The translations under genes and the position numbers were made by a program. A stretch of DNA of 64,000 nt, from the NCBI RefSeq assembly GCF_003334785.1, contig NZ_QOWV01000014.1. The stretch is one strand, 5' to 3'. Positions 41,851 through 45,595 of this stretch are shown in pieces; the stretch's first letter is position 1, and each line of letters opens with the position of its first letter. The notes beneath the pieces were generated by a model, which worked only from the letters and a program-made list of their open reading frames with translations, did no database searches and was not told where the DNA came from. The DNA comes from Escherichia coli. GTDB lineage: Bacteria > Pseudomonadota > Gammaproteobacteria > Enterobacterales > Enterobacteriaceae.

Positions 41851-42531
41851 TCACCCACTGTGGTATATGCGTTGTGGTCTGCCAACTTTGCCGTGAACAA
41901 TTTCAGCAATAATCAGATGGCGGCTGGCGCAATATTCAAGATAACGCCTGGCAGTGGTGCGGCTGATGGTCAGTGCCTGCGCCACCGTTTCTGCCGTATG
42001 TTGCACACCAGGCTCTTTAAACAGTTTTCGCACCGCGTTTAGCGTCAAGGGGTCAATGCCGGTCGGTAGCTCGTCCTTAGGTTCACCGCGAGCATAAGCA
42101 TTAAACATCTCATCAATTTGCTTCTGGCTGGCGCTATCAATACTTTCCAGCATATGTTTACGCTGGCGGAAACGGGTTAGCGTTTGCCCCAGCCGTTCAT
42201 AGGCAATGGGCTTAATGAGATAATCAAATACACCACAACGTACGGCTTCAGACACCGTTTCCATATCGCTGGCTGCAGTGGTAAACACCACGTCGCCGGG
42301 ATAATGCGCCTGCACCAGTTCATGCAGTAAATTAATCCCTCTACCGTCAGGAAGATAGTTATCGAGCAAGATTAGCCCCGGCTTAAAACGCTCGATCATC
42401 ATTCGGGCCTGCGCCAGATTTCCCGCCAGTAATATCTGACTGAATCCGGGAATGTGACGAATATATTCCGCATGCATCTCTGCCAGCGGCGTTTCGTCCT
42501 CAACGATCAATAGGGTTAATGGAGCTGTCAT
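41851..42531 (-). CDS. dpiA: Two-component response regulator DpiA (CitB)
   Basis: 226-aa ORF with a receiver domain and a C-terminal HTH. Confidence 0.9.
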   Translation of the reverse strand: MTAPLTLLIVEDETPLAEMHAEYIRHIPGFSQILLAGNLAQARMMIERFKPGLILLDNYLPDGRGINLLHELVQAHYPGDVVFTTAASDMETVSEAVRCGVFDYLIKPIAYERLGQTLTRFRQRKHMLESIDSASQKQIDEMFNAYARGEPKDELPTGIDPLTLNAVRKLFKEPGVQHTAETVAQALTISRTTARRYLEYCASRHLIIAEIVHGKVGRPQRIYHSG

Positions 42532-44158
42532 TAGGTTTCACTTTCGGAATATAGATTGAAAATAAGGTACCGCAGGGATCATTATCTTCGAGAGTGATAA
42601 CACCACCGCAGCGCGTTACGTAGCTGGCAATCAAGTACAACCCAATGCCATGTTCACCGGGCTCGTCAGCACGCGTACTGACCCCCTGCTCAAATATTTT
42701 GTCTCGTAGAGACTCTGGAACGCCGCAGCCCTGATCGGCGACTTCAATCACCACATCATCGCCTTCATCGCTGAGGAATAATTCAACGATCTTGTTTCCT
42801 TCATCGCTACGCAGGCTGGCTTCGAAGGCGTTATCAAGTAAATTGCCCACAATGGCTGCAAACTCGGTGCTATCCAGTCCTGGCGGCAGTTGCGAAAGCT
42901 GGCTACCGGGGACAATGATCATTTTTAGCCCCAGTTCCCGGGCGCGCTGCACTTTACCAAAAAGCAGCCCCGCCACCTGGCGATCGGCAAACGCCTCGCG
43001 CAGGCTGTCAATAAGCTGTTGCTGGGCCTGAGACTCCCCCTGCACCATCGCCAGCACGCGATCATACTCTTTCATCTGCAACAGACCATTGAGCGTCGAC
43101 ATCCAATTGAGATGCTCGTGTCGCAATGTACGAAGGCTCTCAACGTATTGTTTTATTTGCGTCAGTTGCGCATTGAGGGTGGAAATTTCGTCTTTACTAC
43201 GAAAGCTGATAATGGCCCCCAGCAAATCATCACCTGAACGAATAGCTTCCCGGTTGGCAATAACGCTCAGACCGTTAAAGTTCGCCACCACATCCTGACG
43301 TTTTTCATCAATCTGTTCGGTAAAGAAATCGGCGGGCCTGACCACTTCAACAATGGGTTTACCCAACCATTGCCGTCCGGGGGAACTCAGCCCCAGCATC
43401 TTTCTTGCGTTACGATTGATGGCGGTAATGTAACCATGCGGATCCACCGCAATCAGCCCTTCATAAACCGAACTAAACAGCGCCTCTTGCTGACGGACCA
43501 CGCGTGCGATTTGCTTTGGCTCCATGCCCATCATCTGCCGACGGATATGCGCGGCCAGGAACCACGACAGCAACATCAGAATCCCTAACAGCACGACAAA
43601 CACACCTGCCATCGGTAATAAAAACTCAGCCCGCCAGCTATCGATTTTACTCACCAGGTAGCCAATCGACACCACGCCGATGACTTTTCCATCGTCATCA
43701 AAGATTGGCGTTTTGGCGCGCATCGCCATCCCCATTGACCCTTTCCCGGTAATGAAGTAGCTCTCCCCTTTCTCCAGCGCGCCCTGTTTGGTGAACTGCA
43801 TAGGATAACCAATTTTCTCCGGATTAGGATGGTAAAGGCGGATCGAGTGCCGGTCCCCAATCACCACATAATCAAAATCGGTATCTCTTTGTAATTTGTT
43901 AGCGATGGTCGCCAGCCGTTTGTAGTCACGCGTTTTCACCGCAGAGATGACACTGTCATTGGAGGCAATAATTTTCGCCTGATTCATTGCCATGTCGCGT
44001 ACATGAAGCGTTAAATAGTCCTCAAAACTGGCCGCAAAATATTGCGCCAGGGCTGCAATGACAAATATTGAGAACACCAGAATCAGCAAAAAGATACGCA
44101 GCGGAAATGCCAGTCTTTGGAAAAATGCAAACTGTTTATTCTCGTTAAGCTGCAACAT
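42500..44158 (-). CDS. dpiB: Sensor histidine kinase DpiB (CitA)
   Basis: Start at the internal ATG (MLQLNENKQ...), 552 aa, with two TM segments, a periplasmic domain and kinase/ATPase domains; 32-nt overlap with dpiA. Confidence 0.9.
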   Translation of the reverse strand: MLQLNENKQFAFFQRLAFPLRIFLLILVFSIFVIAALAQYFAASFEDYLTLHVRDMAMNQAKIIASNDSVISAVKTRDYKRLATIANKLQRDTDFDYVVIGDRHSIRLYHPNPEKIGYPMQFTKQGALEKGESYFITGKGSMGMAMRAKTPIFDDDGKVIGVVSIGYLVSKIDSWRAEFLLPMAGVFVVLLGILMLLSWFLAAHIRRQMMGMEPKQIARVVRQQEALFSSVYEGLIAVDPHGYITAINRNARKMLGLSSPGRQWLGKPIVEVVRPADFFTEQIDEKRQDVVANFNGLSVIANREAIRSGDDLLGAIISFRSKDEISTLNAQLTQIKQYVESLRTLRHEHLNWMSTLNGLLQMKEYDRVLAMVQGESQAQQQLIDSLREAFADRQVAGLLFGKVQRARELGLKMIIVPGSQLSQLPPGLDSTEFAAIVGNLLDNAFEASLRSDEGNKIVELFLSDEGDDVVIEVADQGCGVPESLRDKIFEQGVSTRADEPGEHGIGLYLIASYVTRCGGVITLEDNDPCGTLFSIYIPKVKPNDSSINPIDR

Positions 44159-44218
44159 TGTTTTCCTTGCGGGTTGTCCCGAGCCTCTTTGACGGATGTA
44201 ATTAAAATGTTGAATCAA

Positions 44219-44536
44219 AATACATAGATATTAATTATGATCGTGGCAAATTTTATTCATTAAATCAATTAAATCACTTAAACCTGCGAGTCATTTCGTA
44301 ATTACATTAATTAAAAAACTTAAAATCATTAAATAAATAAAAAACCACTAACTCTATGTGAAATAAATCAAAATTTCACGCCGAAATACTCCTTAGGATG
44401 TATAGCGAAAGGAGAAAAAGATATACCTCGATCACCCCCTTTCTCCCAAGTGAAAATAAAAGGTTATCAGTTTGCAACATTGAACAACATTCGTTGCAAA
44501 TCGATAACAACATGCACCTTCAGGATACTATTTATT
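44219..44536. promoter_or_regulatory. Divergent dpiBA / citCDEFXGT control region
   Basis: 318-bp AT-rich spacer with repeated TTAAATCA motifs and the palindromes GTGAAAT...ATTTCAC and TTGCAAC...GTTGCAA. Confidence 0.5.
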
Positions 44537-45595
44537 ATGTTCGGCAATGATATTTTCACCCGCGTAAAACGTTCAGAAAATAAAAAAATGGCGGAAATCG
44601 CCCAATTCCTGCATGAAAATGATTTGAGCGTTGACACCACAGTCGAAGTATTTATTACCGTAACCCGCGATGAAAAGCTTATCGCGTGCGGTGGAATTGC
44701 CGGAAATATTATTAAATGCGTTGCTATCAGTGAATCCGTCCGCGGTGAAGGACTGGCGCTGACATTAGCCACTGAATTGATAAACCTCGCCTATGAGCGG
44801 CACAGCACGCATCTGTTTATTTATACCAAAACCGAATACGAGGCGCTGTTCCGCCAGTGCGGTTTTTCCACGCTGACCAGCGTACCCGGCGTGATGGTGC
44901 TGATGGAAAACAGCGCCACGCGACTGAAACGCTATGCCGAATCGCTGAAAAAATTTCGTCATCCAGGGAACAAGATTGGCTGCATTGTGATGAACGCCAA
45001 TCCCTTTACGAATGGTCACCGTTATCTGATTCAACAGGCTGCGGCACAGTGCGACTGGTTGCATCTGTTTTTAGTCAAAGAAGATTCTTCACGCTTCCCC
45101 TATGAAGACCGGCTGGATTTGGTGTTAAAAGGCACCGCCGATATTCCACGCCTGACTGTGCATCGTGGCTCCGAATACATCATCTCCCGCGCTACGTTCC
45201 CTTGCTACTTCATTAAAGAACAGAGCGTCATTAACCATTGTTACACCGAAATTGATCTGAAGATTTTCCGTCAGTACCTCGCTCCCGCGCTGGGTGTAAC
45301 TCACCGCTTTGTCGGTACTGAACCCTTTTGTCGCGTTACCGCCCAGTACAACCAGGATATGCGCTACTGGCTGGAAACGCCGACTATCTCCGCACCGCCC
45401 ATCGAACTGGTTGAAATTGAGCGGCTGCGTTACCAGGAGATGCCGATATCCGCTTCCCGGGTACGTCAACTGCTGGCGAAAAACGATCTCACGGCTATCG
45501 CGCCGCTGGTCCCTGCAGTCACGCTGCATTATTTGCAGAACCTGCTTGAGCACTCCCGCCAGGACGCGGCAGCTCGTCAAAAGACCCCCGCATGA
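44537..45595 (+). CDS. citC: [Citrate (pro-3S)-lyase] ligase
   Basis: Start at the internal ATG 44537 (MFGNDIFTRVKRSEN...), 352 aa. Confidence 0.9.
   Translation: MFGNDIFTRVKRSENKKMAEIAQFLHENDLSVDTTVEVFITVTRDEKLIACGGIAGNIIKCVAISESVRGEGLALTLATELINLAYERHSTHLFIYTKTEYEALFRQCGFSTLTSVPGVMVLMENSATRLKRYAESLKKFRHPGNKIGCIVMNANPFTNGHRYLIQQAAAQCDWLHLFLVKEDSSRFPYEDRLDLVLKGTADIPRLTVHRGSEYIISRATFPCYFIKEQSVINHCYTEIDLKIFRQYLAPALGVTHRFVGTEPFCRVTAQYNQDMRYWLETPTISAPPIELVEIERLRYQEMPISASRVRQLLAKNDLTAIAPLVPAVTLHYLQNLLEHSRQDAAARQKTPA

Follow-up and report, generated by a model that had tools for sequence, protein, structure and literature searches.

Phylogenetic footprint of the divergent dpiB (citA)–citC control region of Escherichia coli: phased TTAAA repeats as candidate DpiA operators

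Results

The dpiB–citC spacer

The stretch of DNA analysed here (the window; 64,000 nucleotides of E. coli contig NZ_QOWV01000014.1, assembly GCF_003334785.1) contains at positions 44159 to 44536 the divergent spacer between dpiB (citA) and citC, in the form found in E. coli K-12. The spacer is 378 bp long. The genes dcuC and dpiA lie to its left and citDEFXGT to its right, and the RefSeq annotation, the ORFs and the translations agree on these neighbours. A 501 bp query (44100 to 44600) is matched in 5420 of the 5426 complete E. coli genomes and is 100% identical to K-12-type records in which RefSeq annotates the two flanking genes as dpiB and citC. This agrees with the initial annotation, made from the sequence alone, which had placed here the control region that separates dpiBA from the citrate lyase operon. 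The segment is the promoter/operator region of the divergent dpiBA (citAB) and citCDEFXGT operons and has already been characterised in E. coli. It was also correctly described as AT-rich: the G+C content is 31% over 44159 to 44536 and 23% over 44219 to 44382, in comparison with 50% for the whole window.

The spacer is bounded by the following features:

44156–44158, minus strand: dpiB (citA) start codon ATG (CAT on the plus strand), conserved in 23 of 23 spacers and annotated by RefSeq in an identical record
44522–44539, plus strand: citC Shine-Dalgarno sequence AGGA (44522–44525) and start codon ATG (44537–44539), with 'CAGG' and 'TATGTT' conserved

The left edge of the spacer is set at 44159 because the conserved dpiB ATG, on the minus strand, is at 44158. 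The initial annotation had begun the spacer at 44219, but that is merely where the longest dpiB ORF, which has a TTG start, ends. It had also pointed out that the citC start lies well inside the longest ORF, and the ATG at 44537 is indeed 87 nt into an ORF with a GTG start at 44450. The in-frame extension of citC has stop codons in E. albertii, Citrobacter and Hafnia, however, so this position is without significance. The frames 5' of both the dpiB and the citC ATG contain stops in E. albertii, Citrobacter, Salmonella or Hafnia, and beyond the two ATGs conservation drops sharply; the annotated starts of both genes therefore stand, and a coding role for the upstream ORF extensions was rejected on the strength of these stop codons. 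A coding role was likewise rejected for a 50-aa ORF at 44398 to 44550, since the spacer alignment has indels that are not multiples of three. The segment is not a mobile or dispersed repeat (REP/BIME/IS), as it is single-copy with a median of one place per E. coli genome.

In 49 of the 5420 matching genomes less than 80% of the 501 bp query is covered in one piece, and NZ_CM196076.1 has its match divided between two places. A few strains thus seem to have a spacer that is interrupted by an insertion or deletion. Outside the spacer, the end of dpiB and the start of dpiA overlap by 32 nt (window positions 42500 to 42531), which is consistent with translational coupling, as in many two-component operons.

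Conservation of the spacer across species

A scan for CitC using one genome per species gave 80 loci. Escherichia, Citrobacter, Salmonella (arizonae and diarizonae), Hafnia, Buttiauxella, Atlantibacter, Edwardsiella and others all have dpiB and citC in divergent orientation, separated by about 380 bp. Spacers from 23 taxa of Escherichia, Citrobacter and Salmonella were aligned; no change is seen in 37% of their columns, whereas only 11.7% of third-codon positions in citC are invariant. The invariant columns form blocks, the spacing between the blocks is fixed, and several of the blocks are conserved well beyond these three genera, as described for each block below.

Two of the 80 loci look like contamination or mislabelling in public assemblies. 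One is a low-coverage contig of 484 bp in a Terrisporobacter mayombei assembly, which is 99% identical to E. coli citC. The other (L032) is a contig labelled 'Chryseobacterium sp. 18061' that carries an enterobacterial citC (77% identical).

Two phased arrays of TTAAA repeats

The dpiB-proximal half of the spacer contains the following features:

44197–44211: block B1, TGTAAT[T/A]AAAATGTT, 39–53 bp upstream of the dpiB ATG, with TGTAAT and AAATGTT invariant in the 23 spacers
44239–44251: block B2, GATCGT..CA.AT, on the dpiB side of the arrays, with 0–3 mismatches at a fixed offset in Escherichia, Citrobacter, Salmonella and Hafnia
44260–44282, plus strand: array O1, TTAAAtcaaTTAAAtcacTTAAA, three TTAAA pentamers in a 9 bp phase (44260, 44269 and 44278)
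44311–44333, plus strand: array O2, TTAAAaaacTTAAAatcaTTAAA, three pentamers in a 9 bp phase (44311, 44320 and 44329), in the orientation of O1
44326, plus strand: K-12-type allele T, giving CTTAAAATCAT where other sequences have C (TTAAAACCAT), at a position that is otherwise invariant in O2

Tandem TTAAATCA-type repeats had been noticed at first reading, with the repeat TAAATCAATTAAATCACTTAAA at 44261 to 44282, which is O1; all the strings quoted at that stage are present as given. The repeats exceed chance expectation. TTAAA occurs seven times in the spacer, always on the plus strand, in comparison with 2.6 ± 1.4 times in dinucleotide shuffles (p = 0.006), and six of the seven copies fall into two triplets with an exact 9 bp spacing. 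The corresponding pattern, TTAA-N5-TTAA-N5-T[TA]AA, is found only at O1 and O2 within the 64 kb window. O2 lies 51 bp downstream of O1 and its last pentamer is 28 bp ahead of the TGTGA of the box described in the next section. Counted from the citC start predicted below, O1 extends from about -146 to -124 and O2 from about -95 to -73. The region also contains a 31-nt module repeated 42 bp apart with 77% identity. Small repeats of 7–10 nt are numerous here, and AT-rich composition alone inflates the number of such repeats.

Both arrays are deeply conserved. In O1 the 13-nt run TTAAATCAATTAA is invariant in the 23 spacers, and TTAAATCAATTAAA is found exactly in Hafnia, Buttiauxella and Atlantibacter, with one mismatch in a Vibrio locus (L078) and with two mismatches in Providencia. 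In O2 the runs TAATTAAA and AACTTAAAA are invariant in the 23 spacers (as TAATTAAA.AACTTAAAA), and Providencia, Pragia and Enterobacter sp. have a related sequence, TTAAAACCATTAA. When 78 loci are taken together, the 450 bp that precede citC contain the phased pattern at 4.16 per kb and the rest of the loci at 0.012 per kb, an enrichment of about 350-fold, and 9-bp-phased TTAAA triplets are present in 43 of the 78. In two loci without a divergent dpiB (L030 and L032) the TTAAA box still precedes citC, and in L030 a TTAAA pentamer stands 28 bp before TGTGA, as in E. coli. Conservation in other enterobacteria had been proposed as a check on the motifs, and for the TTAAA repeats the outcome is that they are kept from Escherichia to Providencia and in one Vibrio locus.

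The K-12-type sequence departs from this conservation at one position of O2. The base equivalent to 44326 is C in six other E. coli strains and in all 22 other Escherichia, Citrobacter and Salmonella spacers. The change to T in the K-12 type may weaken citrate induction.

Reporter constructs bear on the function of the arrays. A sensor built from Citrobacter rodentium dpiAB and PcitC responds to citrate anaerobically in E. coli and is strongly inhibited by nitrate (PMC12405535). A derivative that keeps the DpiA operator sites while its own dpiAB is deleted (DTR304) responds to citrate through the DpiAB of the host (PMC12405535). In the same study, citrate switching is lost in DTR305, which is without the 'DpiA operator sites' mapped from EcoCyc (PMC12405535). 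The forward primer of DTR305 anneals to CATCTAACTCTTTGTGAAATAAATCAAA, which corresponds to window positions 44346 to 44373, starting just upstream of the TGTGA box. Because DTR305 begins at the equivalent of 44346, near the TGTGA box, the deleted part that is required is the segment containing O1 and O2. The TTAAATCA-type TTAAA repeats are the best candidates for operators of DpiA/CitB. The initial annotation had offered its motifs as sites for DpiA or global anaerobic regulators. For the repeats, which are invariant in the 23 spacers and lie in the segment required for the citrate response, this proposal is supported; it holds in part for the first of two palindromes and fails for the second (see below).

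A related regulator has to be considered for the same arrays. DcuR is a paralogue of DpiA/CitB and belongs to the same regulator family, and DcuR sites consist of AT-rich hexamers in tandem, (T/A)(A/T)(T/C)(A/T)AA, which ATTAAA fits. Scheu and colleagues reportedly described a DcuR binding site upstream of citAB in 2012, and O1 is 102–124 bp from the dpiB ATG. The arrays, or at least O1, might thus be mainly DcuR operators that connect C4-dicarboxylate sensing to citAB, with DpiA binding elsewhere in the spacer. We think this unlikely. The TTAAA box, with the TGTGA box following at a fixed spacing, is also found directly upstream of citC in L030 and L032, where there is no divergent dpiB, and in Vibrio locus L078, and deletion of the region abolished induction by citrate, which is therefore DpiA-dependent induction (PMC12405535). 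Operators primarily for DpiA/CitB account better for these observations.

A CRP/FNR-type box and the core promoter

Between the arrays and citC lie the following features:

44357–44372: CRP/FNR-family box TGTGA-N6-TCAAA, centre 44364.5, containing the left arm of the palindrome GTGAAAT-N8-ATTTCAC
44373–44379: ATTTCAC, the right arm of this palindrome, found in Escherichia only; ATTTACC or ATTACC in Citrobacter and Salmonella
44385–44403, plus strand: core-promoter block AATACTCCTTAsGATGTAT, with the -10 hexamer TAGGAT at 44394–44399; a NarL-like match overlaps it

The longest invariant run of the spacer in the 23 taxa is the 17-nt unit TGTGAAATAAATCAAAA. The sequence TGTGAaataaaTCAAA agrees with the CRP consensus TGTGA-N6-TCACA at nine of ten core positions and is one of two such matches in 64 kb, where 0.5 would be expected. 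Read as gTGAa-N4-ATCAA, the box also agrees at eight of ten positions with the FNR consensus TTGAT-N4-ATCAA; its right half is perfect and its left half has the CRP-type G. The protein that binds the box is thus ambiguous, because the box is a hybrid of a CRP-like left half and an FNR-like right half. TGTGA/TTGAA-N6-TCA is retained in Hafnia, Buttiauxella, Providencia and Moellerella, in the last as cTTGAAatagGTCAA. The centre of the box is at -41.5, the class II position, when counted from the start inferred through the conserved TAGGAT -10. The promoter has been described as induced in the presence of glucose (PMC12405535), so simple activation by CRP fits poorly.

The palindrome GTGAAAT (44358–44364), N8, ATTTCAC (44373–44379) had been proposed as a regulator site. 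Its left arm lies in the conserved box and its right arm is restricted to Escherichia. As the right arm becomes ATTTACC outside this genus, the palindrome is not the functional unit. Perfect 7 bp inverted repeats with a spacer of up to 20 nt number three in the spacer, and 16% of shuffles reach three, so these are not above chance. TGTGAAATAAATCAAAA reads as a CRP/FNR-family box; a global regulator is therefore plausible here, but not by way of the GTGAAAT-N8-ATTTCAC palindrome.

In the core-promoter block the runs AATAC, CCTTA and GATGTA are invariant in the 23 spacers (AATAC.CCTTA.GATGTA, 44385 to 44402). The -10 hexamer is TAGGAT in E. coli and TACGAT in Citrobacter and Salmonella, and TACyCCTTAsGAT is retained in Hafnia and Buttiauxella. 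From this hexamer, citC transcription would be predicted to start near 44406, about 7 nt past the end of the -10 at 44399. A promoter/terminator scan found neither a sigma-70 consensus promoter nor a terminator in the spacer. The absence of a sigma-70 consensus is what one would expect of a promoter that depends on an activator.

Two further matches to known regulators were seen. TACTCCT-TA-GGATGTA (44387 to 44402) agrees at 14 of 16 positions with the NarL/NarP 7-2-7 pattern TACYYMT-NN-AKRRGTA; TACTCCT is a perfect NarL heptamer, and in distant genera only this first heptamer is kept. In block B1, TGTAA-N6-TGTTG agrees at eight of ten positions with the ArcA pattern TGTTA-N6-TGTTA. Both patterns are at chance level in the window (NarL, 3 matches against 2.9 expected; ArcA with two mismatches, 55 against 46 expected), so the names NarL and ArcA are taken as leads only. 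Block B1 itself is probably part of the dpiBA promoter or operator.

The citC leader

The predicted leader contains three features:

44411–44446, plus strand: leader stem 1, in which GGAGAAA (44411–44417) pairs with TTTCTCC (44440–44446) around a 22-nt loop
44452–44469, plus strand: leader block B7, GAAAAyAAAAnGTTATCA, A-rich, at about +47 to +64, with 0–3 mismatches at a fixed offset
44463–44508, plus strand: leader hairpin 2, with 16-nt arms GTTATCAGTTTGCAAC and GTTGCAAATCGATAAC and a 14-nt loop, containing TTGCAAC-N14-GTTGCAA

Stem 1 appears in the minimum free energy folds of individual species, and the arms of Citrobacter and Salmonella differ in sequence but are still complementary. In an arm-swap test with one representative per clade, each clade's own arms gave -10.15 kcal/mol in comparison with -7.09 ± 0.78 kcal/mol for cross-clade pairings, and none of 7389 derangements reached the observed value. 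Stem 1 is absent in C. koseri and Intestinirhabdus. RNAalifold found no consensus structure in a MAFFT alignment of 16 leaders and did not recover stem 1. A search of 43900 to 44900 against Rfam 15 at a permissive threshold returned nothing except a snoRNA match (E = 0.21) that falls well short of the gathering score and is spurious. The K-12-type allele has a run of C at 44435 to 44439, in the leader loop, that is one base shorter than in the other E. coli sampled. Most spacers of Escherichia, Citrobacter and Salmonella retain block B7, as does Hafnia.

The E. coli leader as a whole is not unusually stable (z = -1.2); only the sub-hairpin 44463 to 44508 is (-16.5 kcal/mol, z = -4.4). Its arms, 44463–44478 and 44493–44508, are complementary at 14 of 16 positions, and this extended inverted repeat is above chance (p about 0.003). 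The hairpin is kept in four Escherichia species, and no equivalent was found in Citrobacter, Salmonella or more distant genera. Variation within Escherichia preserves U.G pairs or restores A-U pairs, on the plus strand only, and one population variant, G44470A, turns a G.U pair into an A-U pair. The retention of U.G on the plus strand alone indicates pairing in RNA. Hairpin 2 includes the second palindrome, TTGCAAC (44472–44478), N14, GTTGCAA (44493–44499), which had also been put forward as a regulator site. It lies at about +67 to +94 from the predicted start, in the transcribed leader, and is better explained as an RNA stem specific to Escherichia than as a conserved binding site for a regulator. 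The conservation check thus gives a different answer for the palindromes than for the repeats, as neither is conserved as a palindrome outside Escherichia.

Could both palindromes nevertheless be operators for a dimeric anaerobic regulator, with the second acting as the site of a roadblock repressor in the leader? Both are perfect 7 bp inverted repeats that are nearly invariant within E. coli, and the second extends to 14 of 16 positions, which is above chance. This reading is improbable, however, as Citrobacter and Salmonella, which keep the regulators and the remaining promoter, conserve neither the right arm of the first palindrome nor any of the second, and the changes within Escherichia keep U.G pairs on the plus strand only. 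To our knowledge there is no CRP, FNR, NarL or ArcA consensus with a spacing of N8 or N14. The conserved box and the leader stem described above are the preferred readings of the two palindromes. Stem 1, as a covarying stem at 44411 to 44446, and the Escherichia hairpin at 44463 to 44508 may have a role in mRNA stability or in the control of translation.

Discussion

A model for control of citC and dpiBA

Taken together, the data suggest that citC is controlled by DpiA/CitB acting on O1 and O2, by a CRP/FNR-type box at -41.5 and by a promoter with a -10 element only, and we would give this reading a probability of roughly 0.75. Citrate-activated, phosphorylated DpiA/CitB would bind two AT-rich operators, the distal O1 (44260–44282) and the proximal O2 (44311–44333). 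The 51 bp between them correspond to about five helical turns, and the pentamers, all in the same orientation, would lie on roughly one helical face. DpiA would then act with a CRP/FNR-family dimer at -41.5 to recruit RNA polymerase to a putatively weak citC promoter, in which the -10 is TAGGAT, there is no -35 and TGTGA-N6-TCAAA would occupy the -35 position. Repression by nitrate is probably exerted through the conserved block that overlaps the -10. The predicted transcript would carry a leader of about 131 nt with two stem-loops ahead of the citC Shine-Dalgarno sequence.

In the other direction, the divergent dpiBA promoter probably makes use of O1 and O2 along with blocks B1 and B2, which would provide autoregulation and an input from DcuR; O1 may be used by DcuR as well as by DpiA. 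Our analysis establishes which locus this is, how the repeats are arranged and that they exceed chance, and that the blocks are conserved at fixed distances from one another; the proteins assigned to the blocks are inferences.

The idea that the repeats and palindromes are by-products of an AT-rich spacer of the H-NS-bound or curved type, with no sequence-specific role, has the 23–31% G+C (against 50% for the window), the many 7–10 nt repeats and the chance-level 7 bp palindromes in its favour, and it is very hard to reconcile with invariant runs of 13–17 nt where only 11.7% of third-codon positions are invariant, with TTAAA on one strand in an exact 9 bp phase, with the roughly 350-fold enrichment of the phased pattern upstream of citC across genera or with the loss of function on deletion (PMC12405535).

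E. coli and its relatives control the anaerobic fermentation of citrate through this region, which is now being reused as a promoter for gut biosensors. The region and its regulatory logic are already known, and our analysis adds no new biology of note. What it does add is a phylogenetic footprint at the level of single bases: the phased TTAAA arrays, the -10 block and the TGTGA-N6-TCAAA box are constrained, whereas the two palindromes are specific to particular lineages. Such a map is useful for the design of promoter mutants or sensors.

A more far-reaching interpretation would have three parts. An operator of the CitB family may be defined by same-orientation TTAAA in an unusual 9 bp phase, conserved between Vibrio and E. 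coli and always 28 bp from the hybrid CRP/FNR box, which could integrate both global signals. The leader stems may regulate at the RNA level, as suggested above, and the K-12 type may be affected by its C-to-T operator change. That the region holds these as undescribed layers beyond the known DpiA promoter seems doubtful to us.

Comparison with known systems

The closest system is the E. coli citA(dpiB)–citC control region as entered in EcoCyc and RegulonDB, which is the same locus with the same sequence and the same flanking genes. The sole peculiarity of the window is its K-12-type allele, with T at 44326 and the C-run one base shorter. CitA/CitB is known to control citCDEFXGT (PMC3694859), and dpiBA is one of the promoters whose architecture the Reg-Seq preprint counts as known.

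The citS–citC2 spacer of Klebsiella pneumoniae is the next closest. According to a paper that cites Meyer, Dimroth & Bott 1997 and 2001, this spacer has CitB and CRP sites (PMC2735749). As proposed for E. coli, its divergent cit promoters are activated by phospho-CitB on A+T-rich DNA and have a CRP-family site (PMC2735749). The locus is, however, a paralogue and not the same one: CitC of the Klebsiella-type locus in our set (L068) shows 55% identity, and the divergent partner of citC2 is citS-oadGAB-citAB rather than citAB as in E. coli. Upstream of this Klebsiella-type locus, the search for the strict 9-bp-phased TTAA pattern gave no match.

Class II CRP- and FNR-dependent promoters share with citC the TGA-N6-TCA core, a box at -41.5 (here from the predicted start) and the lack of a -35 hexamer. 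They differ in their half-sites, which at citC are hybrid, with a CRP-like GTGA and an FNR-like TCAA. Finally, the DcuR operators of the dcuB, frdA and dctA promoters are, as general background on DcuR, AT-rich tandem short repeats far upstream of their promoters, and in this they resemble O1 and O2. The signal is different, since DcuR responds to C4-dicarboxylates and DpiA to citrate.
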